64,000 nucleotides of DNA from Eledone cirrhosa (taxonomy: Eukaryota), in assembly GCA_964016885.1 (NCBI GenBank), contig OZ024742.1, positions 3,472,001-3,536,000 on the forward strand. Direction: 5' to 3'. Shown one piece after another: positions 2,149-63,336 of this stretch. Every line of letters starts with the position of its first letter. Position 1 is the first letter of the stretch. Under the pieces are notes generated by a model. The model worked only from the letters and a program-made list of their open reading frames with translations. It had not been told where the DNA came from and did no database searches. The translations under genes and the position numbers were made by a program.

Positions 2149-3620
2149 GATTTCTTTATTGGCCACAAGGGCTAACATCAAGGAAAACATTACAGACGGC
2201 ACAGGAGGGTACAGGACGGTACGATGTGGGTTTTGTGCGTGTAAATATTTTTATTATTTATATAAGAAAAAAAAAAGGACATAGAAACATATATATATAT
2301 AAACAATAAAAATGAAAATTGAAACAATGAAAAATTCCCCAATAGGGGGGAAACCTCCGAGGGTTACTCGTGGCGAAAACCACACAAAAGACAACGGCTA
2401 GCCTGACCACCAGGGCGAGCGCCCTCTCTCAATTTTTCCATCTCTCAAACTACAGACGTATATTCAGAGTGGTCCCGTTCACTCGGACCATTCTCGCTAC
2501 ATTCACCCACCTTTCAACAAACTTGCTAGAAAGCAGCACTTGCCTCTCCACCCTGATTTTCCTCTTCAAGTGAAACTTGAAAAAGTTAATTAGGGATTCG
2601 CCGGGGAGGAAAGTGTCTGTTTTAACACTTTTAACCTTGTCCACCACAAATCTCTTTCGCCATGGCCACCAGGCAGATGAAAACCGCTTGCCCTTCCTCC
2701 TCGAAGGAAGACGGCGAGATCATCTGCACAATGGACTCAGTCGACAACCGGATCAGTCCCACACGCGACTGCAACTGTTCGACATAGCTCCACAAGTCAG
2801 CAATGCTCGGACACTGAACGAGTGCGTGCACAACGGTTTCGTCGCTCTGCGCGCATCACGGACAGGCTCGGCTGACGGCACTTCCGTGCCTGTAGAGCTT
2901 ATCTCGAACCGGTAACGCTCCCCCGGTAGCACTGCCAGGCCAGGGATTTTTGGAAGTTATCCATAGGCCTCGGGCTGAAAGTTCTCCGGAAGAGAGCAAA
3001 CAGCTGATCTTCTTTGACGCCCAGGATCTCTCCGAGAATGTCGTCGCTCTTCCCCTCCACTAGTCCTCTATAGAACGCCGAGGTGGATGTTCCACCGATA
3101 CTGGTGCCCATCTGGGAGAGGGCAGTGAGCGCCTGGAGACATTCCAGTTTCCAAGCGCTAACCCTCGGTCTTTTTCTGACTCAGGACTGCAGCTCAGTCA
3201 AGGAGATTAGCTGTGGGAAACGTTCCTTGCGAACGGCGACCACAGCCGTTCACCATCAGGGAAGCACCAGAGATGTCGCAGCTTCAGCGCATGTTTGCGC
3301 ATCATCAGCCATGACATGCCCAGTCCTCCACGCAACGGGTGTTGACAGCAGATGGATCGTCTGACCATGAGAGCGCGTCCCTTCCACAAGAAGCGGAAGA
3401 GGAGGCGCTCCATTTTGGTGAGAGTTGGCTGGAGCAAGGGACGACGGTGAGGTGGTAGCAGATGACGGATGCGATGTACGCATTCGCCACCTCCGCCTGG
3501 CCTTTCAGGGACAGCTTCCTCTCAGCCCATTTCTGGGTGAGGGAGGCCACCCTGCTCGTCACCTCGTTCCAGTTTTTCTCCATCTGGAGGTCCGGTCCGA
3601 ACCAGACCCCGAGCAATTTA
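2149..3620 (-). mobile_element. Tx1-clade LINE 3' fragment (ATT-associated family)
   Basis: LLGVWFGPDLQMEKNW, C-terminus WVNVARMVRVNGTTLNIRL* (stop at 2450), 3' UTR with AATAAA at 2160-2155 then (ATT)n. Confidence 0.9.
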
Positions 3621-7196: not shown

Positions 7197-8989
7197 ATGG
7201 ATGCCATTTCAACATCGCACACTGTCGTGAGTACCACGTTCACTAAGAAAAGTGGTGGAGGGAAGCTAGGAGTACAAAGCTTGCAGCCTTCCCCCCACGC
7301 ATTATCGGAAAACGTTGAAAATATTGAAACCACGGAACCAAACCCGGTAAATAATACCAGCACCAACAACAAGAATAATGACAATAACACCACAACCAAC
7401 AACTGCAACAATAACAACACCAAGGAAAACATGAACAATATCACCAACAGTGACAGCAACAAAAAAGACAACAACACCTAAACGACGTTCGCACAGACTG
7501 TAAAAAAAAACGAACTATACACGCCAATTGACATAACAAATGCTAAACAACTACTACAAGACGCAAAACAATTCGTGACTTTTGGCGAAAACGGTGCTTT
7601 TAGTATTACGTAGAGAGGCTGTCCTGAAAACTGTGGTTTTCAGGACAATATAGAACGAAACAAGAAAACCAGCTCAATTATCACAAAATGAAATTGATGG
7701 TTCGAAAAGATGCAATGAAGGACATAACCTTCATCCAAAAAGGAAAACTGTTTGGTAGCATTTAGGTGCTAATGAATAACCAGCCAACAGCACAAAAATA
7801 CTCTGTATCACCCATTGTGTCCCCCCCCCGCTTCACCTATTCCCCCACATACAGGGGAAAAAGAACACAAAGAATAAAAATAATGAGTATCACACCAAAT
7901 GTAAATATTTGGTGGATACTATGTGGATTCATTAACTTTGATGAAGACAGGATAATTTCAGTAGGAAAGTCCTCCGGAGGTGTATTTGGTGGGACCAGCG
8001 TAGAAGTTCTGGTGCAAATGAGCACAGAACGAATAGCGAATATCCCACAATGCGTGCCTCTGGACGGGCTAACTTATATAAACATTTCAGTGGAGGGAAG
8101 GCGGCCGTCATGTTACCACTGCTTAAGCAGGGGTCATCTGAGGGCTGCCTGTCCTCAATTAACGAGTAAAAAAAAAAGGCTCTTTTGCCAACCCCGAACA
8201 CAACAACACAACGACCACCACCACCACAACAACAACAACAACAACAACAACAACCACAACAACACGGAAAAATAACAACACAAGACACTGTTCCACCCAA
8301 CCCCTCCCCACCTAAAACAAATACAAAAGCAACCACAACAAAACCGCAAAATATACCCCTCCCCAACAACACGGAATCGGACTCCGTATCAACGTCACCC
8401 ATTGACGACGAGGGAGAAAACTTTCAACAGGAGAAAAGGAAAAAAAAAGGCACCACATTAACAAAAATGCAACAAACACACAACCACCAGCACAAACAGG
8501 ACAAACATCACAACCCCCCCCCCCCCCGAAAACATAACACATACTACAAAACCCAAACACGCACAAGAACAACAAACAAAAACAAAAACAAACACAACAC
8601 AACAAAAACTCTATACATACATTAACAAGAACAATAAAACTTTGATGAAAGCAATAGACAATAACCCTTCGGTGGAAACCGAAGGGATCACTTTCACCTA
8701 CGCAGCGGACAAACCGCACCTAATGATGATTAGGGTCCCAACGGAAACCTATGTAACTCTGAAAAAGAACCATCCAATGCATGTGGGGACCACCTGCACC
8801 AAACCACTTAACAGCGTCCTATTGAGATGTTTCCCCACCCTCACACCAGATACCAGCACCCCACCAAACACCCCAATCCCACCACACACTGATGTCCTCA
8901 CCCCACCACAAACCACCACCCCACCAAACAACCCCTCCAACACCCCCATGGAAATTGTGCAGCCTGGTCCCCAGGAGACGAAGAGGTAA
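7197..8989 (+). pseudogene. Tx1 ORF1 (CCHC zinc knuckle, Pro/Thr/Asn-rich), frameshifted
   Basis: INISVEGRRPSCYHCLSRGHLRAAC; split over several ORF-track pieces. Confidence 0.85.
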
Positions 8990-9030
8990 GTAATTTCCTT
9001 TCTTCTTCCTTTTAACTCTTCAGCACCAAC

Positions 9031-12243: not shown

Positions 12244-12537
12244 TACCTCTTTATTTATTTTGAATCTATCTATCTATTTATCTATCTATCTATATACTAC
12301 TACTTAATCTAGCTGTCGTCTGTTCTACAGTGTGGATGTAATTCACTTCGCGCAGAAGTTTTGTTCAAATTTATTGCGGAAATTTTGTGAGTTCAAATTT
12401 AATTTTGATACTATTGTGTAGCTTGACCCCCCGTCTGAACTGTCAGGCGGTGGGTCAGCTCATCTTTACCCCTCCTAGAGGTGAAAAACCTGTTTTAAAA
12501 AATTTTGTGGCAAAAAAATTTCAATCGTCTGACAGAA

Positions 12538-14440
12538 ATGTTAAACGAAGCGAACGAAAATAGTGGTGGGGGGACAGCGGTAAGAGTTGTAAGCTCGCAC
12601 GCTTTAGTCCCCCCTTCCTTCCCAACTAACGTCATAGAGAAGGAAGGAAAAATTAAAATAAAAACAGACGAATCTGCGGAGAAAAATGACGAAAACACAA
12701 ATCTGGACATGGATTCCAACAACGAAAAAAAAAAATTTGAAAAATTGCATGACAATACTAATACCACAAACAAAGACACAACAAACACAAAAATAACATT
12801 TGAAAATAACACCATAACAGAAAGCAAAGCAGACGACAGAGTCAAGATTTCATTTGCACAAACAACAAAGAAATCTTTGACATATATACCCGAAAATATT
12901 TCAGATGTGGCACGAAGAATCACAGACGCCAAACAATACATAAGTGAAGGAGAGAATGGTATTTTATCGGTAAAAATGCCTCAAGAATTCACCAAAGACA
13001 TTGAAAGTCGAACGGTCGTGTTCGGCACCATCAATAACACTTCAAAAAAAACCTGAACAGCCTTCTCAAGCAGATATCAAAACAGTACTCACAGAAGTAC
13101 TTAATGAAACCACTTTCATAAGAAAAGACAGACTGTATGGAAGCCTAGCAATTATCATGAAGAACGAATCGGCGGCAAAAAAATGTGCTTTGTCACAGAT
13201 TCGTTCGAAACATTTTACCTTTTATCCATCTTATATGGGTAAAAGAACTCAACGCATATGGCTGGATGCAATGATGCCAGATGTGGACTACTGCTGGCTC
13301 ATAGCTGGCTTCATCGATCCAGTGAATGACAACGTGATTTCCATTGGGAAAACCACAGGCAATGCGTTCAGTGGAACAGGTATAGAGCTGGTAGTGCAAA
13401 TGAAGCCTGAACGCATCGCCCAAATACCCGACAGAATCCTATTAGAGGGCCACGGGTATATAAACATTAGCGTGGAAGGGAGAAGGCCATCCTGTCATAT
13501 CTGTGCAGGCAGATTGCACCTGAAGGCCGCTTGTCCCCAACTCAACAAAAAGAAAACCCTGCTACCAACACCAGCTCCACCACCACCACCACAACAGATA
13601 AACAAACAACAAAACTCAGTCCCACCCAACCCGTCCCTCAGTAAAACTACACCACCACCACAACACAAACAGTCACAACACATTACCCCAAAACAAAATA
13701 CAGGCCCACCCAACCCCTCACTCAATAAAACAACACAACCACCGCAGACACAACACACAACACAGTCTAACATAGTGACATCCATCTCCCCCACAAAGAA
13801 AACCAACACGGAAACATTACCAGCAAACGTACCTCTTCGCTCCAACACTGAAGATAACCCAACGAATTCGGAGGAAGAAACGGAGTCCTTCAGACAGATT
13901 AAAAGGAAAAAAAGAAAACATGTGCAAAACACACAAGGCCAAACAACCCCCATCCAAATGTCAACACAATCCAACAAAACAGAAAACACCCCTCTAGCAA
14001 CAAACAAAACCAAACCTGCTCCTCCCCTCTTCGAAACACTCACACCATCCGAAAAAAAGACATTACACTATACTTACATCAACAGAAACAATAATAAATT
14101 AAATGAACTCATAAACAATAATCCTTCGGTACAAACCGAAGGTGTAAACTTTGTTTCTTCAGAAAACTACCCACATTTAAAATTAATAAAGGTCCCAATG
14201 AACCTCTACCAAAAACTAAAAAAGAATTTTAAGGAAGACGTAGGACCACCCTCTGTCAAACCCATAAACCGCGTCCTACTAAAAAGCTTTCCCCCTCCCC
14301 TTCCCCTCCCCAACACAACTCCAAACACCCCAACCCCACCACACACTGACGACCCCACACCACCAAAAGACACCCCTTCACCCAACACCCCCGACCCCAT
14401 GGAAGTCGTGCGACCCGAACCCCGGGAAGCGGAAAGGTAG
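12538..14440 (+). pseudogene. Tx1 ORF1, one frameshift near the A-run at ~13050
   Basis: ORFs 12505-13056 and 13001-14440; CHICAGRLHLKAAC knuckle. Confidence 0.88.
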
Positions 14441-14473
14441 GTCTCTACACTCTCCTTTGGCTCTGCCGCCCAC

Positions 14474-17400
14474 ATGGATGTGTTAAGAGTAGGATGTTTG
14501 AATGCACGTGGCCTGGGCTCAACTTGGAAGCAAGCAAAGCTTCTAAATGACCTCAGGTCATGTGGTATAAATGTAATGGTTATCTGTGAGACTCGAATCA
14601 GCGTCGTGCGGCAGCTGGCCCCTACCTTCGATGACTTTGAGGTGCATGCATCTCTCTGTCAACCTGGAGGTGGGGGTGGGGTTGTCGTACTGCTGCAAAA
14701 ACACCTGGGTCTTGCCGTACAGGTTGTGCACTCGGACCCGGAGGGTCGTTTGTTGGTGCTAGACGTTGGCAGTAGTGAAGATGCGGCCTTGAGACTGGTC
14801 GCCGTCTACTCCCCTTTCGGAGCTGAACGGCCCGACTTCTTCCAGCGTTTGGAGACTTTTCTGGGAACGTCGCATTCCCAGCTTCTAGCAGGGGATTGGA
14901 ATGACATCCTAGATGCACGTTGGGACTATGCAGGAGCATGTCCTAATAGAGGGGGGTGTAACAGCCTCAAGGGGTTACTCGACCGTTTTAACTTCGTCGA
15001 TAGATATCGACTAGATTTTCCAACTGTGTCTACCTGGACTTGGAGAAACCACAGTGGTCAATCTAGATCGTACTTAGATAGATTCTTAGTTAGAAGTAAG
15101 GATAGGGACATATTAAGCTGTCCAGAAATGCGCACGGTTGGCTACACGGATCACAAATTAGTGACCTGAGTAGTCAATCTCGAGAAAACACATAAACAGG
15201 GTCCCGGTTACTGGAAACTTAATTTGTCTTTACCGGCAAAAGAGACTTACAGAAACCGGATTAGCAGATTAGTTAAGGAGAGGTTGACGGGTGCAATCGT
15301 CAACAACCGATGGTGGGCATCTCTCAAAAGAGAGATTAGAACAGAATCAATAAGTTATAGCAAGATGTTAGCTGCCGATAGGAATAGAAACGAGAAAGAA
15401 TTAACAGGTAAATTAGAAGAGGCAATCAAGAACGAAGATGTGGCCAGAGTGCTGGCATCGAGGACGGCCTTCGAAGTCATTCGAAGTAAAATACGTGCTC
15501 TAGGTAATGAGGGGGCCAAAGCCGTTGGCTGGGCCCGCGTGACAGAAGCTAAGAGTGGAAATCGATCCACCATCCGGTCGTTGCAAGACGAAGATGGACG
15601 GGTGATCCGGGAGTCTAAGCAGATGTGCGAGGCCTTTCAAAGGCACTTTGCCCGATTGTTCGGGGGAGGCGAGGGTCCGGGCGGGGGCGTGTATTTCGGT
15701 CCATACCTTGACGGCCTGCCGCGTCTCTCGAGCGAAGAGGCAGAGTCCTGCGAGGGACCAATCTCGGCTGATGAGATCGGAGATGCTCTGAGCCAATGCA
15801 GCAGACGCAAATCTCCAGGTCTCGATGGTATACCTTACGAACTTTATTTAGCAATGCCGGTCTTCTTCTCCGAACTCCTCGAAGCGGTCTACTGCAATTG
15901 GCAGCAGAACGGGAGAATTCCTTGTTCTGTAGCCAAGGGCGTAGTCACGCTGGTGAGGAAGGACGAGAACAAGGGAGATAGTATAAATAATTTTCGGCCC
16001 ATAACCCTGCTAAACACAGAGTTAAAGATTTTGGCCAAGGTGTTAGCAAAGAGGTTGGCGCTTGTCGTGGGTGGCCTGGTGGGAGATGTGCAGACATGTG
16101 CTATCCCATCTAGGTCCATTCACGATAACCTCCACCTCATGCGATACATCATAGAGAGGGTTGGCAACAAATCCGGCTTCGGTGGGGCCCTGATCAACTT
16201 GGATCAGTCTAAGGCCTTCGATATGGTCGACCATGGTTACCTGGATGCGGTGCTAGCGGCGGCTGGGTCCGGTCCTGTTTTCAGAGGCTGGATCACTGCC
16301 TTACATAGCAACCACATCTGTTCTAGGATCAAGGTGAACGGCTACCTTTCGAAGCCGTTCGAAATCACATGATCCATTCGACAGGGGGTGCCCTCTGTCC
16401 TCCCTTCTGTACGTATTGACTCTCGAGCCTTTACTGAGGAAGTTGGAGTTGTTGCAGGGTATCCCCCTGGAACCAGGATTGAGCAAAGCGGTGTCGGCCT
16501 ACGCCGATGACGTAACAGTAATGGTATCGACCGACTCGGAGATCGAGGCGATCGGTACCTTACTGGAGGATTACGAAAGGTTGTCAGGAGCGAAACTGAA
16601 CCGGGAAAAATCCATCGGGCTGCAACTCGGAACGTGGAGAGGCAGACCGATGCCTCCCGACGGTGTCGTCGGACACTGGACGGAGGGCCCGGTAAAGTTG
16701 CTTGGGGTCTGGTTTGGACCGGACCTCCAGGTGGAAAAGAACTGGAACGAGGTTACGAACAAGGTGTTTGCACTAACCCAGAAGTGGGCCAAGTGTAAGC
16801 TGTTCCTAAAAGGGCGGGCGGAGGTGGCGAACATTTACATAGCGTCCGTCACTTACTACCGCCTGACTGTCGTGCCTTGCCCTAAGGAAACACTCACGAC
16901 CATGGAACGCATGCTCTTCCAATTTCTTTGGAAGAAGCGCCCTCCTATGGTGAGAAGGTCCATCTGCTGTGAACAACCTTCGAAAGGAGGGCTGGGGATG
17001 CCGTGGTTGATGATGCGTAGGCACGCATTAAGGCTACGGCACCTACAGGTATTCCTCACTGGTCAACCGGTGTGGGCTCCGTTCGTGAAACGAGCCTTTC
17101 CGAGACTCGTCTCGCTCACCGAGCTGCAGTCCTGGGGCAAGCAATGATCCGGAAAACTGGGAGACTGGCACACTGAGTGTGCTCAGGCGCTCAGGGCTCT
17201 CTGGCAAGCGGGCCAGGCCGTCGGTGGAGAATCCACCTCATCATTCTATAGAGGGTTTGTGGCTAGCAGGTGCGATGACACCCTTGGAGAGTCGCTGGAC
17301 ATGGAAGAGAACGAACTGGCCAGCCTGTTCGGTAGGACTTTCGGCCCGGGACCAATGGACAACTTCCAGAAGTCACTAGCCTGGCAGTGCTACCGGGGGT

Positions 17401-17882
17401 CTCTACCCGTTCGAGAGAGGCTCTACAGACACGGGCGCCCGGGCAGGGATCCCTCAAAAAAGATTTGCCCTAGATGCGTGCGTCACGAAGAAACCGTTGT
17501 GCACGCATTGGTGCAATGTCCAGGCGTGGCTGATCTGTGGGGCTACGCCGAACGACTGCTGTCGCGGGTGGCGCCGATTCAATTGACCGCCGAGTCCGTG
17601 ATGACAATCAAACCGCTTCCCCTCTTCACAAAGGAAGCAAAGGCGGTTTTTCTGTGCGTAATAGCCATGCTGAAAGAGGTTGTTTGGTGGACACGATTGA
17701 AAGGTCTGAGGTCAGGCAACTTCCTCTCTGGCCATAGTCTGGTCTACTTCTTCCGATATCACTTCGGAAGAAGGATAAGAATGGAGAGAGAGGTCCTTGG
17801 CCACAGGCAGTTTTATGAAAGGTGGGTGATAGTGGCGAGAATGGCTCGTGTAAATGGGCCTTCTCTGTATACCATCCTGTAG
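14474..17882 (+). pseudogene. Tx1 ORF2 (APE, RT, zinc finger) with premature stops/frameshifts
   Basis: ORFs 14474-15169, 15224-16372, 16416-17147, 17259-17882; YADD; CPRC..EETVVHALVQC. Confidence 0.92.
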
Positions 17883-18101
17883 GTAAAGAAGTAAAGGAGA
17901 GGGGAACACCTTCTCCATGTGCTCCCCGGGCAAAGGATTGCACACTTTTTCGGAGGTGTGTGCAACCCCCATCACGTCCCCTCCGTTTTGAGGTTATTTT
18001 CGATTATTTTCATTTTATACCCTTTTTACTCGATTGTATGTAAACTCCCCCTTTGTATTTATCCCTGCTTTTTATGCCTTTATGGTAAATAAAGAAATAT
18101 A

Positions 18102-18245
18102 TCTATATACTACTAAAACTGTGATTTTGTGCTTGTCTGTAATGTAATACAGCCCAAACGGGGCATGATGGGAAAATAGATTGAAAGGGAAGTTCACCCA
18201 AATGGAATAAAATAAGTGTCACGTAAATGGGGGTTTTTCCTAGTA
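18102..18245 (+). mobile_element. Possible Helitron 5' terminus
   Basis: A/TCTATATACTACTAAAACTGTGATTTTGTGCTTGTCTGT resembles the TC-TATA...AAAA starts of animal Helitrons; no RepHel coding sequence seen. Confidence 0.4.
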
Positions 18246-34025: not shown

Positions 34026-34348
34026 GAAAGGTGACTGAAAGTGGCGAGTCTGGTCCGGGTGGACGGGCTCGCTCTGAGTATGCGCCTGTAGACTGAGGAG
34101 TGGTAAAACTGAGTGAGGGCGCTTGTCCTGGTGGTCAGGATGGCCGTGGTCTTTTGTGTGGTTTTCGCCACGAGTGACCCTCGGAGGTTTCCCCCTTTTT
34201 GGGGAAATTTCGTTGTTTGAATTGTTTTGATTTCTATCCTGTTATAACCTTTTTACACAGCCAAAACCCACTTTGTAACGTCTTGTACCGTTCTATACCG
34301 CCTGTAATGTGTTTCTTCATGTGAGCTCTTGTGGCCAATAGAGAATCC
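34026..34348 (+). mobile_element. Tx1 3' fragment flanked by (ATT)n on both sides
   Basis: Encodes a decayed KVASLVRVDGLALSMRL*; 3' UTR homologous to 2149-2450 and 63085-63337. Confidence 0.85.
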
Positions 34349-34413: not shown

Positions 34414-37400
34414 AGCTGCATTTATCTTGCTTTATCTTCATACGAGTTATCACCAAGTCACAACCAGTGACCTCAAGAGACAACAAGGTCCGCCATGTTC
34501 AAGAAAGAACATACATACTCACACATGCATCTTTAGGTGTTTTCACTTGTGATGTACTTATATTGACAGAATCTTCCTTAGTATATGGGCAGTTTCCATT
34601 AGTACTATCTTTTGTATTTCTTCTATACGCGGGTTTCCTGGGATTTGCGATAAGTAATCATTAGATCCCTTAGGTATCATTCCTAGAGCGCCTACAACCA
34701 CTGGTATTGTTTTAGTTCTCAATTTCCACATTTTTCCAATTTCTATCTCCAGGTCCTTATACTTGCTCAATTTTTCAAATGTTTTTATAGATACATTCTT
34801 GTCTATTGGAACGGACATATCAATTAACATGCATACCCTCTTTTTAAAGCCCTCAGTATTATATCAGGTCTATTTGCATCTATTTTTCGGTCTGTTTGGA
34901 TGCTAAAGTTCCACAAGATTGAGATGTGATCTTTTTCAAGTATGGGAGGTGGTTGATGCTCCCACCAATTCTTTTGATGGAGCAGGTCAAAATGCTTACA
35001 CATTATCCAATGTATGTATTGTGCAGCTCTGTCATGCCTGTTTAGGTATTCGGTTGGAGCTATAGGACTGCACATTGAAATTATATGATCAATGGTCTCT
35101 GGTTGTTTTTTACATACACGGCATAATGGGCTGCATCCATTTTTTATTATGTCGGCTTGGTAATTTTTTGTTGGCAGACACTGATCTTGTGCTGATATAA
35201 TCAGTCCTTCATTCTCCGATTTCAGTCCAGAGGATGCCAATCACTGATGGGTTAAAGTTTTGTCAACATCAGGATTGTTAGCTCGTTCTGGGTATTTTCC
35301 ATACAAAGACTTTTCTTGCCATTTCTTAGCCAGTTTGTGTAGCAGTTCTTTCTTTGCAGTTACTTTTACCTGATTTTCTTTTTCTGTGTTTTCCATTTCA
35401 GCAGTAAATGGGACTTCTGAAATTTGTAGTCCATTACTGTATCTTTGTGCATCTTTTGTAATGGAGTATGATCTTTTGATGCTTTCGTGTTTCAAAACGA
35501 GTTTGATCATCCAATCATGTGATTCCCTTAGATATGTAGATAATCCAATTGTTGCAGTTTTCAACGCAATGTCTAACTGGATTAACCCACGTCCTCCTTC
35601 TTTCCTAGGGAGATATATTCTATCTGTATCTGCCTTAGGGTGATGCATTCTGTGCATGGTTATGAATTTTCGAATTTTTGTATCGAGCCTACGGATCTCT
35701 GTGCTTGACCAGTTGATGACATTGTAACTGTAGGTTACTACTGGTATGGCAAGCGTGTTTATGGCATCGATCCTATTCCTTGCATTCAATTCCGTTCTTA
35801 AGATTGCTCTTACTCTGCGGTAACATTCCTTCCTTATCCTTTCCCTCATTGTCGAGTGCTTGATTCCGTCTCCTTCACAAATACCTAGATATTTGTAAGT
35901 TTCCTCTTGATCAAGTTCTCTTATCACATTCCCCCGATCAAGATTAATGTCTGAACTTTTCAGCAGCTTTCCTCTGGTGAACGTTGCTTTGGCGCATTTA
36001 TCTAGTCCAAACTCCATTTTAATGTCATCACTGAACTGCTCCACAGTGGATAATAGCCCTTGCAATTGTTCATCATTTTTTGCAAATAGTTTCAGGTCAT
36101 CCATGTAGAACAAGTGATTAATGGTTTTGTCATAGACTTTATATCCATGTTTTGTTTCATTGAGCATTTTACTTAATGGTATAAGCGCGATGCAGAATAA
36201 AAGCGGTTATAAAGAGTCACCCTGAAAAATTCCACAATTAATATTAACTTCTCCAGCTTCCAGCGATTTTGTTTCACTATTCAAAAGGAGTGTCGTTTTC
36301 CATGTCTTCATACTGAATGAAAAAAACCTCCTGACAAAGGGAGATATTTTGAAAATCTCTAAACATTTTTCAATCCAACTGTGTGGCAAACTATCGAATG
36401 CTATTTTATAATCTATCCAACCAATTGATAGATTTTTGTGTCTATTATGACAATCTTCCAGTATCATTTTGTTAACCAAAAGCTGATCCTTACAGCCATA
36501 TGAGCCTCGTTTACACCCTTTCTGCTCAATGGGAAATAGGTCATTTGTTATCAGGTGGTCATATGTATATTCAGTTAGGACTGATGTTAACATTTTATAC
36601 ATTGTGGTCAAGCAACTTATCGGTCTGCAATTTGGGGGATTGTTTGTCTCATCATTCTTCGGAAGCAGGAATGTAATGCCGTTAAGTAGCCATGATGGTA
36701 TCTTTTCTGGCTCCTTAACTATTTCATTGTAAAGTTAGGCTAACATCTCATGAGACTCTGTGAAGGCATTTATACAAAAATTTTGTATTTTGTCTTTTCC
36801 TGGGGATTTCCATTTGCTGGTTTTTCTAAGAGCCAAACGCAACTGTTCAACTGTTATATTTTCCCATATTTGTTCCTCAAGGTGAGCTGTATCTTTCATT
36901 TGTCTGTCTATCCATGGGGCATGTATATTATGAACTTTTTCTTCGGCCCAGATCTTTTCCCAGAATTCATGCACTTCCTCCTTGGGTGGTATTGATTTAG
37001 CAGTTATTGTTGACTTACCAATTTTTCTGTAGAAGTTTCTTTGGTCGTTTTTGAACATATTATTGTCCTTATAGAATCTAGATCGTTTTTCAAAGCGCCT
37101 TATACGAGCAGCTTTGGCCGACACTTTTTGCTTGATTATTTCTATCAGCATGTCTATGTCACTTGTTGATTTTATACTGTACTTTCTTTTCAATTTTCTA
37201 AGTTTAGTTTGTTTAACATGTTCACCTACTTTATAGTTTGTTAAAATTTCTATGTCAGATCGGAGAAGGTTTATTTGGCGATTGATGTTCTCTTGCCAAG
37301 TAGATTTCTTGTGGGAATTCCTTTGTTTTTTCATTTTCACTCCACATAAGTGAGTGGTGACTTTAGCCGATGCATAATAGAGATGATTTAAATCAGTAAT

Positions 37401-39373
37401 GTTTAGTTTGTTTGTGATGATAATGTTTTTGAGGATTATGTTAGTCTTGTGTACTATATTTTGGTTCTGTTTGGAGTTCTGGATCTTAGGGAGGGTGTCT
37501 CGTTCCTCCATGTCAGATTCTTTCATGTTCATCCATTCGATCATAATTTCATCCTTCAAGTTGGCAAGTTCATTGTCATTCATTTCTTTATCATTTACGA
37601 TCTCATTGTTTTCATTTTGAGTTTCATCTTGAGCATGCACTCCCTCCACTTTTTCGATCCTTTCTTTAATTTGTTCTGTTGTCAGTGATTCCGCCCCAAC
37701 CCTGGGATTCGAAGTGTTACAGTTTACCTCGTTTTCACTGACACATGTTTCATTTTCCCTTCGCTGACTTTGTGCTAATAGCTTGATCTGAACAATTTCT
37801 ATATCAGTTAGTAACTTTTTTTTACAATATTTTTTCGTATATTGGCTAGTTTGTTACTGTCAATATAGCCTCTGTTTTCGGGATGTTTCTTTTTCCAATT
37901 GATATATGTCTGTTCTGTATTCGATGTATTTGATGGGTAGTACATGGCAGTGTAGAAAGCCTCAATGACTTCTTTATTATCTTCCCTTGACCATTTTTCT
38001 CTTTTTTTCTTTGGATTTCTTGGTGGTGAGCATGGAGGGCCAACAGTAGGAGTATTCCGGTTATGGGAGGTCTCCAGCTCCGAAGTGATGGGAAGGTTTG
38101 AACCATTAGCTGATTTTTCGACCCCAGTTTGGTTCCTCTCTGAGGGAAGCGGCCCTTTTTGACCCGGGTGACGGCCGATCCAGTATGAGATTTTATCATT
38201 AGACATTTACTTTATTTTGTCGCGTTTTATCCTTATCCGCCAAGGGGTAATCATTTCGTGTTACCACTTCTAGGACGAGTGTCAACCAAGACTAGAGTGG
38301 TCGTCCCCTAGAGGCACGGCTATTCCCCGCCGGCCACCATCCCGGTATTTCTTGGTCACGGGTTTTCTTTTTTGTTGTTTGTTTTAAATTGTTATTATAA
38401 TGAGTGGTTCCTTAATGTGAGCATTGCGTGGCTTAAGAATGAAATTATTAATAATATAATTTACTTTTTGCTGAAGTTGCCTGTTATTGTTGTTGGCTAT
38501 GTCGGTGGTGGTGCTGGGGTTTTTTCTATTGTTGGGGGGAAGGGGGAGCCAGCAGTGCCATAGTCGTTGGCGTTTGGCCGGTGGCCGGGTCACTAAGTCA
38601 ATCTATTTATATCTTTTGCTAGCCTCTCCTTTGTCTAGTGATACCGCCACCTTCCCCTTTCTTAAGTTAACAGAAGGTAATGGGGGAATAGTGGTGGTAG
38701 CAATGAAGGAGTGGTGGCGGCGGTGATGGGATAGTGGTAGCAATGATGGATGAAGTGGTGGCGGCGGTGACTATAGCGATGGCGTTGTCGTTACTGAGTT
38801 TTGTTGAATAGACTGTAGTTTGTTTGATCTGAGTATCTATGCGGTTTGTCGCGTATGTTTAATATATATGTTGACATATTTTTCTTAATATTGGCATTAA
38901 ACATTTTGTGAAAACTTGAGACAATAATAATAGTAATTATTATTATTATGCTGGGATTGGTGGTGGTGAAATTGCCGTTATCTGGCTGTTCTATTTAGTG
39001 TACACAGAGGGGTGATGGGGTAGGTGGTGTATCTAGTTTGTGGTGTTGGTTAAATTGCTGTTATTTGACTGTTCTATATAGTGTAGACAGAGGGGTTTTT
39101 TTCTTCCATTTTAGTGTAGACAGAGGGGTTTTTTTCTTCCATTTATAACCGTTTGCTTTTTGGAATATAAAATTTATAATACAAAATTGAATATTTGAGC
39201 GATATAACAGGATATGATGGATCCGAATTTTCTGAGAGTTGAGTCTGGTGCTTTATGTATCATTTGTACTAAGAATTGTTATTTCACGATTGATTTAAAT
39301 ATGTTAAAAATCAAATACTTATGGGAGAGATTTCATGATCTTCTATCAACCACGTGCGTCTTCTTCTTCTTCC
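34413..39373 (-). mobile_element. R4/Dong-clade LINE family B, full-length
   Basis: Single long ORF, ~1.17-kb 5' UTR, (ATT)n on both sides. Confidence 0.93.
34558..38206 (-). pseudogene. Dong-B ORF: RT, CCHC finger, restriction-like endonuclease; disrupted
   Basis: WKSPGKD, GIFQGDSL, HLFYMDDLKLF, CRVCKKQPETIDHIISMC, RHD, RPDII, EKLSKYKDL. Confidence 0.92.
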
Positions 39374-41107: not shown

Positions 41108-44100
41108 TCAGATATTCAGGACGTATCGGAGGGTTCTTGCTGTTCCCAGCAAGCATGCCTTTTGAAGCGTTCCAAAAAGCGTGAAGGGGCCAATTTTCTT
41201 TAACCATCTCTGGAAACTTTTTGAGATAGTCCCTAGTGCGCCTATGACAATCGGGATCACTTTGACTTCATGGCAGTTCCAAATCCTTTTTACCTCCCAT
41301 TTTAAGTCCTGGTATCGGTTAATTTTCTCCCTCTCCTTCTCTTGCACTCTCGTGTCGAATGGGCAGGCCACATCCACAATGAGGCACGATCTTTATTCTT
41401 TGTCCACAACCACCAGGTCAGGTCTATTGTGTTCCAGTTTCTTGTCCGTCTGTATCCTGAAATCCCACAGATCCTTCAGCTGATCGTTTTCTATCACCGC
41501 CTCTGGCTTATGCTCATACCACTTCTCAGAATGTGGTAAATTGTTTACTTTGCATAGGTGCCAGTGGTTCACCCTGCCCATCACATCATGTCTCCAGCCC
41601 TTATAGTGAGTCTGGGCTAGGTGTTTACACTCGGATACAATGTGAGCCACAGTCTCCTCTCTCTCTCCACAGATCCTGCACAGTGGGCTAGCCTCCTCCT
41701 TGTAAATATGGTGTTTCAACCACTTCGTTTTGAGGGCCTGTTACTGCGCAGCCATTAACATTCCTTCTGTAGCCTTTTTAAGGTCTCCTCTTTTCAACCA
41801 GTTCCATGTCTGTGGATCTCTAAATTCAGTTTTCTCAAAGAAGGTACTATGAAGGGATTTTTCCTGAAGGCTGCTCTTTCTCCTTGATGTTATTTCCTCC
41901 TTGGACAACCCCTGGCCTATTGTCCCCTCCTTCAGTACAGTTCTGAGCATTGGCTCCTTACTATCGGTCACGTATTTGTGTAGGTTATTTTTCTCCATCT
42001 GAACACAGTCCTCTATGCTGATAAGACCTCTTCCACCCTCAGATCTCCTTAAGTAGAGTATATCGACATCACTCCTCTTGTGGAACATGTTGTAGATAGT
42101 CAATAGCTTCCTAGTCTTCCTATCCATTTCTTTCTGTTCAGCAACATTCCATCTCAGAATTCCCGCACTGTACCTAATAATAGACACAGCTCGGGAATTT
42201 ACTGCACTTATGGCATTCCTACTGTTCAGATGTGACTTTAATACGCTCCTTACTCTCCGAATGTATTCAGTTCTTATCAATTCCTTCATTTTTTTGTTCT
42301 TGATGTCATCAGCCTCCAGAACGCCCAAAAACTTGTATCCTTCTTCAGAGTCAATTTTCTTTATCATCTCACCCGTTGGTACCTGGATTCCGTTACTTCT
42401 GCTCAACTTACCCCTCTTCATCACAATGACTCCACACTTACTAATACCAAATTGCATACATATATCATTGCTGAAAATACGGACAGTGTCAACAAGCACA
42501 TCCAACTCCTTCTCACTCTTCCCGAAGAGCTTAAGATCGTCCATGAAGAGGAGGTGATTGATGGTAAGCCCCCTCCCCTTTCCCAACCTGTATCCTGCTC
42601 TCACCTTTCGAAGTACACTGGTCAGGGGCATCAGGGCAAGGACAAACAACAGAGGGGACAGACTATCTACCTGGAACATACCTCTCTTGATCTTCACGCT
42701 TCCCAAGGATTCTCCAGTTGATGTTAACTGTGTTTACCAGGACTTCATACTTTTGCCCAACAACTGTCTGAATTTATCTGCCACCTTGAAGATCTCCAGG
42801 CTTTTGGTGATCCAAGAATGAGGCACCATGTCAAATGCCTTTTTGTAGTCTATCCATCCCATGGCAAGACCAGTGTGTCTCCTCTTGCAATTCCTCATTA
42901 CCATCTTATCAATAAGTAACTGGTCCTTTGTACCACGTGACTTCTTTCGGCATCCTTTCTGTTCGTCCGGTAACAAGTTGTTTGTGTGGAGGTGATGGTA
43001 GATTTCCTCAGACATAATGCTTGTCAACAGTTTCCACATTACGGACAGACATGTGATAGGTCTATAGTTGGTAACATCATTACCCTTGATTCGGTCTTTC
43101 ATTATCAGAACTGTGGTACCTTTTTTCAACCACTCTGGTACCTCACCTGGCATCAAGCACTCATTGAACATGGTTGTCAGTTTCGGGTGGAGGGATCTTA
43201 TATTTTTAATCCAATACCCCTGCACACCATCTGGGCCTGGTGATTTCCAGTTGGTTAGTTTTTTGGCCTGCCCCTTAAGAGTTTCAACTATGATACTCAA
43301 ATCAGTTTGTTGGTGTGCCTGTTCACTAATCTCCTTCTGTACTGTCTCAATCCACACTGCCTGGTCATTATGTTTAACATCCTGCTCCCATATTCCTCTC
43401 CAGAATGTTTTAGTTTGTTCCGCCCCAGGGATCAAGTCGTTGCCTCTTTCTTTCCCTTCAAGCTGTCCAAACAACAGCTTCTGGTTGTTGTCAAACATGC
43501 GGTTCTGTCTATACTGGCTGACTCTGTTCTCGTATCGCCTGATTTTTGAACTCTTTGCTACAATGCGTTGCTTCAGTTCCTCTATGATAATATTTAGCTT
43601 TTTCCTCCTAGTTTTGTACTTTATTTCCAGTCTATTTTTAGTGTCTATATGTTTTAGTGTCCCATTCAGTAGGAACTCAAGCTTTCCAATGTCATTTCTC
43701 ATTTCCCTGATTTGACCATTCAGTCGTTTCTTCCACCAAGGCTCTGCTCTTTCTTGTCTGTTGTTTCTTCTCGCTTTTATACCAAGTAGTTTCCTCACCG
43801 CATTTGCTGTTGCTTTGATGATATTGTTGCACTGGTGAAGGCTCCTCGCCTCATGGTATGGGATGACTTTGTTTACCTTAGCTGTTGTTACTTTAACTTT
43901 TTCCTGTCTACAAATCTTAGGTTCATAGGTCTCCCACTATCATTGTTCAATTCATCTACCACTAAGTTTAGGATATCAACCAAATCTTTTCCTAGCTCGT
44001 CAGCATTCATCTCCTCAGTGGCCGTAACTCTGTTCCAGGTATTATTTATCTCAGCATTCAGATCATTGTCTGCTTCGGGTGGTTCCTCCGTTCTCTCGAC

Positions 44101-44535
44101 TTCTTCACCTTCATTTCCCACTGGCTCGTTTGCCTGGCATACTCCACTCTCCATCTCCAAGCTAATCTCTCTGCTCAGTTCCTCCAGTTCCAGCTCGCTT
44201 ATCCACCCATTAGTTCTTATTACCCGAGCCTGCCCGGCCAATTTTTGTTCATCTAATTTAAATAGACCAATCTCGTTCCAGATGTTATACATCCGTTTCC
44301 TATTGCCTTTCTCCTTGGGGTTACTCTTCAGGTAACATTGCATAACAGTTCTATTCAATTCTTTCGTCCAGTTGGTTCTGGTCCCTTTCCTTCTTCTTCT
44401 TCCTCCCACACCAGCAGTATTTGGTTCAGAGCCAGGTCCCTGCTGCTGAGCCAGGGAGCACCTGTTGGGTGAGAGTCTGTCACATGACATTCTAGTCTCC
44501 ATTTCACCGTTATTCGAACTGTTTAGGTTCGACAT
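41108..44535 (-). pseudogene. Dong-A ORF: RT, CCHC finger, restriction-like endonuclease; disrupted
   Basis: WKSPGPDGV, YRPITCL, WIDYKKAFDMVPH, HLLFMDDLKLF, CRICGEREETVAHIVSEC, RHD, RPDLVV. Confidence 0.92.
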
Positions 44536-44898: not shown

Positions 44899-45997
44899 TA
44901 TGTTGATGCCTTCCTCTTTTAGTGGGGATTCTACGATGTAGCAGGGGGTAGCGGGAGAGAATAGCGGCGGTAGTGATAATGAGGCAGTGGTGGTGGTGGT
45001 GGTGGTGGCGGTGCTGTGCTAGCAGCAACTAGCAGGAGGTCGTGGGAGAGAATAGCGGCGGTACGATAAATCCTTATTAGGCAGTGGTGGTGGTGAGGTG
45101 GTCGTATTACTGTAGTGATGGTGTTGAAGTTGGAGTAGAAATAGCGGTTGAGTCGACTTAACCAGAGTTTTCATCGTGGTAGTGTTGGTGGTGTTGGTGG
45201 TGAAATTATCTTTAGTTATTTAGTCATTTTGTCATTTTCCTCCTTTTCGACTCTAACATTCCTGATCCAAAATTAAATATTAATCTTGTTTATTAATATT
45301 GTCTAGTGATACCGCCATCTTCCCCTTTCGTAAGTTAACAGAAGGTAATGGGGGGATAGCGGTGGTAGCAATGAAGGAGTGGTGGCGGCGGTGATGGGAT
45401 AGTGGTAGTAATGATTGACCGGGGGCCGTTGGTGGTGACTGTAGTGATGGCATTGTCGTTACTGAGTTTTGTTGAATGAACTGTATTTTTGTTTGATCGG
45501 TGAATCTATGGGGTTAGTCGCGTATATGTGTTGACATATTTTCTTAATATTGGCATTAAACATTTTGTTAAACCTTGAGACAATAATAATAGTAATTACT
45601 ATTATTATGCTGAGATTGGTGGTGGTGGTGGTGAAATTGCCGTTATCTGGCTGATCTGTTTAGTGTACACAGAGGGGTGATGGGGTAGGTGGTGTATCTA
45701 GTTTCTGGTGTTGGTGAAATTGCTGTTATTTGGCTGTTCTATATAGTGTAGACAGAGGGGGTTTTCTTCCATTTATAACCATTTTCTTTTTTGAATATAA
45801 AATGCATAATACAAAATTGAATATTTGAGCGATATAACAATATATTATGGATCCGAATTTTTTGGGGACACAAGCCGGATGTTTTATGTATCATTTGTAA
45901 TAAGAATTGTTATTTCACAATTGATTTAAATATGTTAAAAATCAAAACTTACGGGAGCGATTTCACGACCTCTATCCACCATGTGTGTCTTCTTCCC

Positions 45998-46055
<58 letters not shown>

Positions 46056-46061
46056 GTTATT

Positions 46062-49000: not shown

Positions 49001-50673
49001 GATATCGACCAAATCTTGTCCTAGCTCGTCAGCATTCATTTCCTCAATGGCCGTATCTTTGTTCCAGGTATTAATTATTTCAGCATTTTAGGGCGGTGGA
49101 TTGGCAGTATCGGTAGAGAGTCGGACGCCATGCTTTGAAGCATAGAGTTACGTCCCTTTATGATCTGAGTTCAAATACCGCCGAGGTTAACTTTGGCTTT
49201 CATCCTTACGGGGTCGTTAAAATAAAGTACCAGTAATGTACTGTGTAATTGCTGGCCTTGTGCCTAAAATAGAAACAATTATTTATTTCAGCATTCAGAT
49301 CATTGTCTGCTTCGGATGGTTCCTCCGTTCTCTCAACCACTTCACCTTCATTTCCCACTGGCTCGTTTGCCTGGCATACTCCACTCTCCATTTCCAACCT
49401 AATCTCTCTGCTCAGTTCCTCCAGTTCCAGCTCGCTTATCCACCCATTAGTTCTTATTACCCGAGCCTGCCCGGCCAATTTTTGTTCATCTAATTTAAAT
49501 AGACCAATCTCGTTCCAGATGTTATACATCCGTTTCCTATTGCCTTTTTCCTTGGGGTTACTCTTCAGGTAACATTGCATAACAGTTCTATTCAATTCTT
49601 TCGTCCAGTTGGTTCTGGTCCCTTTCCTTCTTCTTCTTCCTCCAACACCAGCAGTATTTGGATGACAGCCAGGTCCCTGCTGCTGGGCCAGGGAGCACTG
49701 CTGGGTGAGAGTCTGTCACATGACATTCCAGTCACCACTTCACCGTTCTTCGAACTGTTTAGGTTCGACATTTAAACATTCATATCGAGGATTGGTGAAT
49801 GTATGGTTACATAACCACCGGTGATTTCATCACCCCCGGTGATTTCAGCGTGGCACTATCTCGCTGTAGACGAACATAAATAAATAAACAAATAAATAGG
49901 TAAAAACTTTAAAAAATAAGCATAAGTTTCATTTTAACGTAATGTTTGAATGTCTGATTTAGTTTTTTTTTGTTTGTTTGTTTGTTTGTTCGTTTTTCTT
50001 TTCTTTACGTTTTTCGTTGCTGCTGTGCTGTTTTGATTTTGATATTTGATTTTTTGATTTTTTGACCGGGTCATCAAATCAGTCTATTTATATCTTTTGA
50101 TACCTTCCTCACTTTGTGGGAATACTACTATCCCTCAGTCTTAGCAGGAGGTAGTGGGAGAGAATAGCAGCGGTAGCGATAATGAGGCAGTGGTGGTGGT
50201 GATGTGGTAGTAGTAGTATTTAACAGGAGGTAGTGGGAGAGATTAGCGGCGGAAGCGATAATGAGGCAGTGGTGGTGGTGGTGATGAGATAGTAGTACTG
50301 TAGTGATGGTGTTGAAGTTGAAGCAGAAATAGAAGTTGAAGTAACAGTTGGATTGGCTAGATTTTTTTGTGTGGTAGTGGTGATGGTGGCGGCGGCGGTG
50401 GTGGTGTTGGTGGTGAAATTATTTGCCTGTCTGTCCACGTAGCGATTTTACTGTTTTTTTTCGCTATAACATTTCTGATCCAAAATTAAATATTAACTAT
50501 TGAGGCCCTATTCCACAATGTGATGGTTTGTCGCTTGCTGAGAGTCAAAAATGTAATCTTATGTTTCATTTGTAATAAGAATTATTCTATCACAGTTGTT
50601 TTAAATATGTAAAAATCAAAAACTTACGGGTGCGATTCCATAACAGTATATGCACCATGTGCGTCCCCTTCCC
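46062..50673 (-). mobile_element. Dong-A, full-length (A2), disrupted by a SINE
   Basis: ORF from ATG 49771 to stop 46139 in pieces; (ATT)n flanks. Confidence 0.93.
49091..49280 (+). mobile_element. tRNA-derived SINE inserted in the Dong-A2 ORF
   Basis: TTATTTCAGCATT duplicated at 49075-49087 and 49283-49295; the site is empty in copy A3 (~53755). Confidence 0.95.
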
Positions 50674-50764
<91 letters not shown>

Positions 50765-50767
50765 GTT

Positions 50768-55763: not shown

Positions 55764-56480
55764 TACGGAAGTGCTGTCAGACGGACCTGTCCAAGATGCG
55801 CACAGAACGACGAAACTGTTCTGAACGCACTTGTCCAATGTCCGTGCATTACTGACTTGTGGAGTTATGTCGAACAGCTACTGTCGCGTGTGGAACGAAT
55901 CTGGCTATCGGCCGAGTCCATAGTGAAGATCGAGCCGTCACATTCCTTAGGTCAGGAAGAGCAGGAAATTTTCCTCTGTCTGGTGGCAGTTGCGAAAGAG
56001 ATTATATGGTGGACCAGGTTGAAAGGACTAAAGACAGACACTTTTCTCTTCGGCCAATCCCTCATCAACTTCTTCAAGTTTCACCTGGAAAGGAGGGTGA
56101 GGGTGGAGAGAGAAGTGCTGCCCCCTAGTACATTTTCTAAAAGGTGGGTGAATGTGGCGAGAATGGCTCGTGTGAATGGGCCTACTCTGACCATGCGCCT
56201 ATAGGCTAGCTAACTTGAGGAGAGGGGTGCTCTCCCTGGGTGCCCTAGAAGTGCAGTGTGGTTCAGGATTGGTGGGGTACCCGAATCACCCCAGGGTCGT
56301 CCACCCCTATCGGGGAATTTATTTTGTTATATTTTGGCATAGTTTATTTTATATTTTTATATTTTCATTGTTAAATTAGTCTTGCCATTGTGCACTTTTA
56401 CTCGACCTTATTGTAAACCCCCACTCTCCCCGTCTTTGTATTGTCCCCTACATGTCGGCCCTTGTGGCTAATAAATGAAA

Positions 56481-56482
<2 letters not shown>
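55764..56482 (+). mobile_element. Tx1 3' fragment
   Basis: ORF ending 56204: CPRCAQNDETVLNALVQC...NGPTLTMRL*; AATAAA at 56470-75, then (ATT)n. Confidence 0.9.

Positions 56483-56542
<60 letters not shown>

Positions 56543-57628: not shown

Positions 57629-57632
<4 letters not shown>
56543..57632 (-). mobile_element. Dong-B, 5'-truncated, CCHC/endonuclease frame still open
   Basis: ORF 56683-57702(-); 29-bp tandem duplication at the truncation point; (ATT)n flanks. Confidence 0.92.
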
Positions 57633-57668
<36 letters not shown>

Positions 57669-57908
57669 CATTATTATTATTATTATTATTATTGAATGCC
57701 ATGGTTGACGGAGGCTCGGCTCTGTAAGGTATAGTAATTTTTAATCGTTATAACAATTGTAAATTGTTTAAAACTTGAACCAAATTGTAGCTAAAGACAC
57801 CCTCCTCCTCGTGGGAGGGGTCTTTCTGCCCGTTATTTGGCCCTTCGGGGTTAAATAACCGCTTATTGGGGTTTTGTGCGCAATATTCATTTTAACCCCC
57901 CAAAAAAC

Positions 57909-59710
57909 ATGGCTAGAAGAAGTAATTTTCACAAGTCACCCCCACTCATTCCGTCTTCTTCTTCCTCAATCGTCACTACATCAGAGAGAAGATTGTCTCT
58001 CTCCCTCCCTTCTCTTTCGCAAGCGACGCCATTAAAGAAAAAGAAAAATATAGTTTCTGATAGCTTTCACTAAGAGCACGTGCATAACGTGGAACATTTC
58101 TCCACGACAACGACAACGACGAAAAATGTGTGCGGTAAACACGGAAAGCCATTTCATTCGTCTGACGTCATGAAGAATAGCAGCAGCAGCAGCAGCCGTA
58201 ATAACAGCAGCAACAGCAACAGTGAAAAGGAAAACACTAGTAGCAGCCGCAACAACATCAGCAGCAGTATAAACAACAACAACAGCAACAGCGGCGGCGG
58301 CGGTCGTAGTACCAGCAGCAACAACAAAAGTAACAGCAGCTCTGACGACAAAAACAACAACAACAACAAGAAAGAAAAACCAATCTCGTTTGCAGGTATC
58401 GCAAAGAACCTGGGAACCATCATTATAACAAATGAGGAATTACAGGAAGCAAAGAAGATGGTGACGAAAACTGGACACCGAGCAATCTGCAAGGCAGCCG
58501 AAACATTTGTCGAAACCCAACAGCACTGTACGGTCATGGACCTTACAGTAAGCACAAAATCCCGTAGGGTTGAAAGAGCCACAGAGGCTCAAATACAAAA
58601 AGCCTTAGGGTCTGTGTGGCAGCGGAAAACGCATATCACCAGAGGCAAGAAATATGCCACCGTGGACGTGCTTTTTGCCACACCCCAGGAGGCAAAGGCT
58701 CAACTGCCCATAAGTGTTGAGGGCAAATGCCCGAAATGCTTTCGCTGTGGATCGAAGACTCACCTCAGGGCCTTCTGCAATGAGACAACCATGAGAAAGG
58801 AGAAAACCCCCTCCTTCTGAAACCGGCTCAACTGCTACCAGCGACAGGACAAGCGGCAACCAGGAAGGATAGGTCTGTGGCACCCATACCCACGCCACGG
58901 AAATCAATAACAGCAGCAGCAGCAGTGGAAGTATTAACAACAACAACAGTAATACCAACTGCAGCTGCAACAGAGACTCCACTGCAAACACCACCAACAA
59001 CAACAAGTGAAAGAGTGGAGCTGGTACCCCTCCCGACCTCACAGAATCGGACATGGAGTGTGAGGTGGGAGAGGGATGGCAAAAGGTCGCAAGAAGGCAC
59101 AAACGCAGAAGCAGCGCATCGTCGCCTTCGAAAAGGGAGGAAAGAAATGAAAAAAGGATAAAGGCTACTGCAAAGAGACTTACAGCAGCAACACCACCAA
59201 CACCATCACCACCCACACTACCACCACCATCACCACCGGCGGCAACCCCACCGCCAACAACAACAACACCTTCAACACCACCACCACATCGCAAACACAA
59301 CAACAAAACACACACACCCAGCAACAACGGCAAGAAAATAGCAGAACCACACCACACCCCAGAAAAACAAATGCACAGCAATAAATACACACAAGAAACT
59401 AATGACTTACATAATTGAACACAGAGACATTTCACAGCACGACTACATAATACCAGCACCAATCAAAACACCAACGAACATAAGACTGTTAAGAATAGCG
59501 CAGAAACGATACACAAACATTAAAACGAAATTCCCCAACGCAGTTGGTGATTTCAGAGACCTAGGAGGGACACTCAACCGGAGAGTATATTCGGATATAC
59601 TCACAGAAGAGCCGACGACCAGCCGAAGGGACGATTCAACGGTCCCTTCACCAGACGATCAAGTGAAAAGGGATGGAGAAACCATCCTTCCTCTACGAGA
59701 ATTAAGGTAA
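57909..59710 (+). pseudogene. Tx1 ORF1, frameshifted, apparently lacking ~80 codons before the knuckle
   Basis: ISFAGIAK, ISVEGKCPKCFRCGSKTHLRAFC; start approximate. Confidence 0.75.
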
Positions 59711-59744
59711 GTGGTCTTTCCCATCTTTTCCACTCCATTTCAAC

Positions 59745-62700: not shown

Positions 62701-63084
62701 GGTGCCGTCAGCCGGGCATGTCTGAAAATTGCTGACTCGTGGGTTTATGTCGAATACCTACTGTCGCGTGTAGGACGGATCCGGCTATCATCTGAGTCCA
62801 TCGTGAGGATTGCCCCGCTCTCTTCCTTTAGCCGGGAAGTGCAGGTAGTTTTTATCTGTCTGGTGGCCATGGCGAAAGAGATAGTATGGTGGACACGTTT
62901 GAAAGGGCTGAAGACGAGCACTTACCTCTTCGGCGATGCCCTGATTGACTTTTTCAAATTTCATTTGAAAAGGAAAATCAGAGTAGAGAGGGAAGTGCTC
63001 TCTTCCCAGCATTTTGTTGAAAGATGGGTGAGAGAAGCAAGAATGGCCCGAGTGAATGGGCCTACTCTGAGTATGTATCTGTAA
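59745..63084 (+). pseudogene. Tx1 ORF2 (APE, RT), disrupted
   Basis: NINARG, VGDWNG, YTDH, KSPGSDG, DQSKAFDRVDH, QGCPLS, YADD. Confidence 0.92.
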
Positions 63085-63336
63085 ATTAAAGGTGGAAAAC
63101 TGGGAGAGGGCCCTTGCCTTGGTGGTCAGGGTCACTGTAGCCTTTTACTGGGCTTTCTCCACAAATGTCCCTCGGAAGTCTCCTCCCTATTGGGGAATTT
63201 TTCATTGTTATTTTTTTATTACATCCTCTGTTGTTTTACACGCAGAAATGCCCATTTGTACCGTCCTGTATTGTCTACTTTAATGTACTGTCCTTAATGT
63301 CTACTTTATGTAAACCCTTGTGGTTAATAAAGCAAA

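Follow-up and report, generated by a model that had tools for sequence, protein, structure and literature searches.

A conserved splice donor on the ORF1 stop of a Tx1-like LINE from Eledone cirrhosa, a predicted long-range RNA helix and the possible excision of ORF2 as an intron

Long interspersed elements (LINEs) are thought to express both of their proteins from one unspliced bicistronic RNA, and the splicing known for L1 is mostly damage. Here we analyzed a 64,000-nucleotide (nt) stretch of the 3.0 Gb genome of Eledone cirrhosa (GCA_964016885.1, OZ024742.1), hereafter the window, and in it a Tx1-like LINE copy, a2, in which a 5' splice-site motif overlaps the stop codon of the first open reading frame (ORF1) and the second frame (ORF2) may be a whole intron. 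Our results point to a real, selected and lineage-specific donor together with a predicted long-range helix between the inter-ORF spacer and the 3' untranslated region (3'UTR), and an ORF1-only mRNA appears to be the likeliest use of this arrangement.

The 2.1-kb spliced gag RNA of copia (bioRxiv 10.1101/2023.05.27.542554) offers the closest parallel, as here too the enzyme region would be spliced out to give a messenger for the structural protein. However, copia is a long terminal repeat (LTR) element with a polyprotein, whereas the present element is a bicistronic non-LTR LINE with its donor on the ORF1 stop; also unlike copia, a helix is predicted to link the start of the intron with the exon downstream, and splicing itself is predicted from DNA. 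The resemblance to copia-type subgenomic gag RNA would be functional at most, the LINE not being a member of that group. The shGAG RNA of the Arabidopsis Ty1/copia element EVD shares with our case a conserved U1 site, a stop supplied by splicing and a donor better conserved than the acceptor, but it combines a short intron with early termination (PMC5580714), whereas the present case would remove ORF2 in full (3.4 kb) as the intron and use the normal poly(A) site. Human L1 RNA is spliced, and spliced forms with ORF2 retained are retroposed as SpIREs, like two hybrids described below; SpIRE introns lie in the 5'UTR or at the start of ORF1 and are dead ends (PMC5860796), whereas here the sites are conserved and one hybrid, F2b, is abundant. 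The Tx1 elements Kibi and Koshi share the ORF2 made of APE, reverse transcriptase (RT) and zinc finger, the two ORFs and the insertion into microsatellites, but the target here is (TATC)n, and the parts of PMC4494074 considered mention neither splice sites nor a helix. HAL1 (half-L1), an ORF1-only LINE derivative (PMC5753468), has the form expected of a retroposed spliced RNA; in contrast, no ORF1-only DNA copy was found among the copies counted here. An octopus repeat annotation describes active L1-Tx1 families, and the string "splic" is absent from its main text (PMC13282606). Our literature search, which covered listings and the openings of abstracts, with most subscription papers and Repbase Reports outside its scope, returned no LINE whose ORF2 forms an intron, nor one with such a helix. 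If the proposal holds, splicing and an RNA helix that part messenger from genomic RNA would bring to a non-LTR element a strategy like that of copia and retroviruses, and would open a route to ORF1-only, HAL1-like elements as well as a splicing route for ORF1 swaps between families.

Copy a2 is near full length (~12303-18106, plus strand) and defective, with a frameshift in ORF1 (near 13040) and two stops and one frameshift in ORF2; intact relatives are present, with a 1145-amino-acid ORF2. Its relevant features are as follows.

12303..18106, plus strand: Tx1-like LINE copy a2, in (TATC)n-like DNA (sequence, domains, flanks)
12499..14440, plus strand: ORF1 of a2, with a CCHC knuckle and its stop TAG at 14438-14440 (translation)
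14434..14442, plus strand: 5' splice-site motif AAG/GTAGGT overlapping the ORF1 stop (motif, copy comparison)
14441..14473, plus strand: inter-ORF spacer rich in pyrimidines, forming the 5' side of the predicted long-range helix (pairing prediction)
14474..17882, plus strand: ORF2 of a2 (APE, RT, zf-RVT), broken; proposed intron body (domain matches)
17860..17884, plus strand: candidate 3' splice site, made of a coding tract biased to pyrimidines and of TAG/GT at the ORF2 stop (motif)
17881..17907, plus strand: spacer-complementary purine tract forming the 3' side of the predicted helix, which is weakest in a2 (pairing prediction)
18088..18093, plus strand: AATAAA poly(A) signal of a2 (sequence)

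ORF2 matches the APE endonuclease (PF03372), RT (PF00078) and C-terminal zinc finger (zf-RVT, PF13966) domains. The separate ORF1, in which a C-X2-C-X4-H-X4-C knuckle was read in translation, has no match in Pfam, and the sole named protein match of the element is a "Transposon TX1" protein (25% identical). By its domain make-up, CCHC ORF1 and target preference the family is Tx1-like and probably belongs to the Tx1 clade of LINEs. The preference is for (TATC)n-like DNA, seen at the ends read in 20 of 20 a2 copies (L101-L120); a Helitron target was rejected, the flanks being (TATC)n. In the window, (TATC)n flanks of the a2 insertion occupy 12270-12302 and 18094-18112. The a2 subfamily gave 594 exact matches to a 20-mer from the ORF1 end and a degenerate ORF2-start motif gave 10,834 further copies, for a lineage total of more than 11,000 in the genome; a2-type copies commonly stand in tandem arrays with a period of ~5.8-6.2 kb.

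For comparison we retrieved 180 stretches from the genome and defined 19 subfamilies manually. ORF2 DNA is 69-86% alike from lineage to lineage, ORF1s are only ~63-73% alike between most subfamilies, and across 12 lineages only 62 of 388 four-fold ORF2 sites are invariant. The three donors that the initial annotation had placed over ORF1 stops, AG/GTAAGT at 8986, AG/GTAGGT at 14437 and AG/GTAAGT at 59707, are all present, those outside a2 being the following.

8983..8991, plus strand: donor GAG/GTAAGT of copy a1, in tandem upstream of a2 and 3'-truncated (motif)
59704..59712, plus strand: donor AAG/GTAAGT of copy c, F2 family (motif)

The sequence GGTRRGT lies at most 70 nt upstream of the ORF2 ATG in 115 of 122 retrieved copies, picked by family and not at random, against 50 of 2,305 control ORF2 windows; six of the seven misses are decayed single copies and the other carries a variant donor. 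The donor also stands in 72 of 80 further copies inspected at their ORF1 ends, half of them chosen for an intact exon end. When every GT of the element was scored with a weight matrix, the donor came out top in 17 of the 19 subfamily representatives, three of these tied. Since the representatives were themselves found through the donor motif, its invariance among them alone would be circular, a circularity that does not touch the copy counts or the frame shifts. The ORF1 stop sits at +2 relative to the donor in most subfamilies, at +6 in F7a, F4, F5a and F9 and at +28 in F5c, and may be TAA, TAG or TGA, with the donor kept in three reading frames over the 19 subfamilies. Thus, neither an amino acid nor a stop codon explains the motif, and its conservation indicates selection at the nucleotide level. 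The frame from the ORF1 stop to the ORF2 ATG takes all three values over spacers of 25-45 nt, which rules out stop readthrough or a fixed ORF1-ORF2 fusion frame. One copy (G000:C2:350646002) has a 1851-amino-acid open frame spanning the ORF2 start and is probably an ORF1-ORF2 fusion.

The distant relatives came from two metagenome scans, the first of which found none; the second yielded only relatives that are 22-30% alike and have a readable ORF1/ORF2 junction, of which 14 of 48 loci were examined. None of these 14 has a donor scoring at least 9, and by this comparison the donor is lineage-specific. A motif search for more distant families yielded only mutated copies and one unrelated repeat. 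One distant relative, L193, carries GGG/GTGAGT 74 nt upstream of the ORF2 start with the ORF1 stop at +6 and a score of 8.7, within chance for 14 loci. Two other splice-like elements were noted near the donor. The F2, F4, F5 and F9 representatives (clade I) have a second strong donor-like site inside ORF2, at +270 to +320 from the donor; and the spacer of a1 and the F7/F13 type (8986-9023 in the window) holds a branch-like TTTAAC, a pyrimidine run and a CAG 38 nt past the donor, a piece that is not conserved in other subfamilies and of which no copy without it was seen.

Next, we examined the ORF2 stop as a candidate acceptor. The ORF2 ends reported in the window are as described: CTGTAG (2452-2450, minus strand), CTGTAG (17882), CTGTAG (34091), CTATAG (56204) and CTGTAA (63084). 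Outside a2 they belong to the following features.

2450..2452, minus strand: ORF2 stop TAG of an F9-type copy (sequence)
34089..34091, plus strand: ORF2 stop TAG of a 5'-truncated F9b-type copy (sequence)
56202..56204, plus strand: ORF2 stop TAG of a 5'-truncated F5-type copy (sequence)
63082..63113, plus strand: ORF2 stop TAA of copy c (no AG) and 3' strand of a strong predicted helix (sequence, pairing prediction)

Seventeen of the 19 subfamilies end ORF2 in TAG, followed by G at +1 in 15 and by T at +2 in 15, and 11 of the 19 have a competing AG at −7 from the stop. In a2, joining 14436 to 17883 gives the E-R-stop end of ORF1 that had been claimed, and the AATAAA put ~200 nt past this virtual junction lies 205 nt on, at 18088-18093. 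When the same virtual splice was made at TAG across the subfamilies, 12 of 17 reached a stop in their own donor phase after at most three codons (permutation mean 7.0, p=0.003), F2a and F2b being excluded because both lack an AG at the ORF2 stop; by lineage the count is 8 of 10 (p=0.017), and the rows are related. For the five subfamilies without a frame match, use of the AG at −7 would end ORF1 at ORF2's own stop. Precise excision that restores an identical ORF1 end stands only for a2, F1, F3, F12, F11 and F13; five subfamilies need the AG 7 nt upstream, and F2 has none at the stop. An acceptor at the ORF2 stop is plausible from these signals, above all from the frame matching, though weaker than the donor.

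A feature absent from the initial annotation is complementarity between the pyrimidine spacer and the purine tract directly 3' of the ORF2 stop. In 12 of 17 representatives the element's own 3'UTR window out-pairs all ~335 ORF2 windows; in a2, where the predicted helix is weakest, 38 of 334 ORF2 windows pair as well as the 3'UTR window does, and the helix is also weak in F1 and F14. Own partners pair with a mean energy of −25.5 kcal/mol compared with −21.5 kcal/mol after shuffling of the partners, over 18 subfamilies (p<0.0001) as over 8 lineages (p=0.0007). A deletion at this site in its representative kept F2a out of these pairing tests and of the donor/partner covariation test. Of 19 cofolds, 13 have the helix closing at the start context and at the stop of ORF2; it often covers the donor, and it is absent from eight of eight distant relatives. 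From the geometry of the model, in which the intron start pairs with the downstream exon, we infer an arrangement that would block rather than bridge splicing. The 5' truncation points, considered as a possible footprint of the helix, numbered 21, too few to use.

Two hybrid ORF1 ends look like products of real splicing. In the F2b family, which includes copy c, an F9-like ORF1 ends exactly at the F9 donor position (59663 in copy c) and an F2a tail begins directly after an AG, at the junction 59663/59664.

59654..59672, plus strand: splice-like footprint in copy c, F9-type ORF1 end to 59663 and then F2a-type tail (alignment)

In L067, the one hybrid flagged among 104 queries, an F7/F13-like ORF1 end is cut exactly at the donor and followed by an F3/F12 tail that starts after CAG, and the junction ignores a 17-nt homology nearby. 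Among 12 ordinary ORF2 deletions, not one is bounded by GT..AG, and the 80 further ORF1 ends yielded no new hybrid beyond F2b. Such footprints are what would be expected if a read-through transcript of tandem elements is spliced and then retrotransposed. A separate piece in L124 (1493-1518) consists of 24-26 nt of the F2a ORF1 end followed, exactly from the donor, by unrelated DNA; it may be a truncated retrocopy whose source transcript had been spliced into the DNA alongside. Four mosaics, L096 (F12) and L072, L073 and L099 (F13), have ORF1 bodies or 3' ends exchanged among subfamilies.

Starting from the conservation of the motif, the complementarity, the two donor/AG junctions and the frame-matched stops, all of them directly seen, we propose that ORF2 may either be spliced out as a whole intron or retained through the helix, in a switch between an ORF1-only mRNA and genomic RNA; we give this proposal a probability of about 0.5. 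U1 would likely bind the donor in vivo during transcription, and once transcription has reached the 3' end, 3.4 kb further on, the spliceosome would use the AG at the ORF2 stop, or 7 nt before it, or would lose to the helix. The splicing route would give a short ORF1-only mRNA whose junction lies next to the stop and whose 3'UTR measures 200 nt, which is why the benefit could be an ORF1 messenger predicted to escape nonsense-mediated decay. The helix route would mask both splice sites and the bicistronic genomic RNA would stay whole. A further-reaching version, which we consider doubtful, is that the whole RT gene is a regulated intron, that the helix, confined to unspliced RNA, tags that RNA for retrotransposition, and that the same donor has spliced tandem neighbors into new families such as F2b.

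Several observations weigh against the switch. Bicistronic LINE RNA already gives an excess of ORF1, so the need for a switch is weaker than in copia. Branch points are often degenerate; the branch-like CTCTGA said to precede most ORF2 ends does occur at four of the five ends in the window, but a2 itself has CTCTGT, and CTGA (at −18) is found in only 6 of 19 subfamilies, a2 not among them. The pyrimidine tract (0.60-0.80) encodes the conserved end of the ORF2 protein, and synonymous conservation at the acceptor, which had been suggested as a check, is unexceptional, four-fold conservation at the ORF2 end being matched by 13.6% of ORF2 windows. In the predicted helices the G of TAG and the bases +1 and +2 are mostly paired, and pairing could explain TAG and the next two bases without any splicing; the complementarity alone could account for part of the acceptor look. 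The fold of the whole element forms the helix in F2a and not in a2. Of only four phase changes on the tree, three match the frame-matched stops and one, in F2 where the AG was lost, does not. The F2 family ends ORF2 in TAA and thus has no AG at the stop, and with 31 of the first 100 listed non-a2 copies (about a third) it is a successful family that manages without this acceptor; it has likely lost the acceptor and retained donor and helix. Both footprints skipped the element's own ORF2-stop AG, and their junctions may instead reflect a template switch at a 2-nt AG match.

A search for retroposed copies that lack exactly ORF2 had been suggested as a check: none was found among ~2,400 counted copies, neither among the 594 of a2 nor among the ~1,800 of F1 and the F3 group, and none in five F2a matches and one F9 match, for which totals were uncounted. 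Tx1 machinery probably does mobilize other RNAs in trans (PMC4494074). In Drosophila copia, the spliced RNA is ~10x the full-length form, yet no genomic read matched it (bioRxiv 10.1101/2023.05.27.542554), and L1 proteins favor their own RNA (PMC5860796). Given the same blank in copia and the cis preference of L1, the missing copies weigh more against mobilization of the spliced RNA in trans than against splicing itself. Among the contigs of run X4, no donor-to-ORF2-stop joint was present in the 15 of 145 joints considered on a2, where variants near both sites lower the sensitivity, nor among all three joints on an F1 copy, and single contigs span the donor and the ORF2 stop of F1 as well as the ORF2 stop of a2. 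As X4 may be DNA or passive transcription, we drew no inference from these contigs. One X4 joint ending at an AG (14346>14615) was rejected as splicing, being probably a sister family.

Other explanations fit parts of these data, and those built on U1 or on translation could act together with the switch, as the three are not mutually exclusive. It is possible, if rather unlikely, that the donor is a rarely spliced docking site where U1 protects the full-length transcript, for instance by silencing poly(A) signals within the A-rich ORF1, with the helix preventing splicing. Such a site would be conserved even though ORF2-less copies were not found, and would persist in F2 without an AG at the ORF2 stop; A(A/T)TAAA occurs 130-570 nt upstream of the donor in 16 of 19 subfamilies, and U1 represses termination in EVD (PMC5580714). 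However, those upstream signals, missing in 3 of 19, lie within coding DNA that is rich in A, and A(A/T)TAAA is absent between the donor and the ORF2 stop in 12 of 19 subfamilies, which leaves U1 little to suppress downstream; the docking role also leaves the frame-matched stops unexplained, and the footprints suggest that the donor can complete splicing.

We find it unlikely that the helix serves instead as a translation control over the spacer and the ORF2 start, in which ORF2 reinitiation would need an intact 3'UTR, the acceptor look would be a by-product of pairing and the donor would have a minor or separate role. The closing of the helix on the ORF2 start context and stop, the partner specificity of the pairing and the variable ORF1-stop/ATG frame, which suits reinitiation better than readthrough, are all consistent with it, but the donor bases +1 and +2 are invariant even where unpaired, the helix is weak in a2, F1 and F14, and the donor/anti-donor covariation falls short of significance (p=0.13), which leaves the donor unexplained by the helix. 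This last result counts against the switch as well. That the motifs are simply inherited, without function, from one ancestor of a young radiation seems quite improbable. All subfamilies do descend from one ancestor, as their ORF2 likeness indicates, and the distant relatives carry neither a donor scoring at least 9 nor the helix; against this, the motif has survived three frame shifts and spacers of different length while the flanking columns vary, and the complementarity tracks lineage.

Finally, other repeats were noted alongside these copies. A very abundant tandem or miniature inverted-repeat transposable element (MITE)-like repeat lies 3' of an F1 copy (L183:6200-6400 and L171-L175) and has a huge summed contig depth in run X4. 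In the window itself, several copies from other LINEs that encode an RT, only ~27% alike to the a2 ORF2, occupy 35241-37853, 41741-44535, 45884-49087, 50709-54483 and 56448-57747 on the minus strand.

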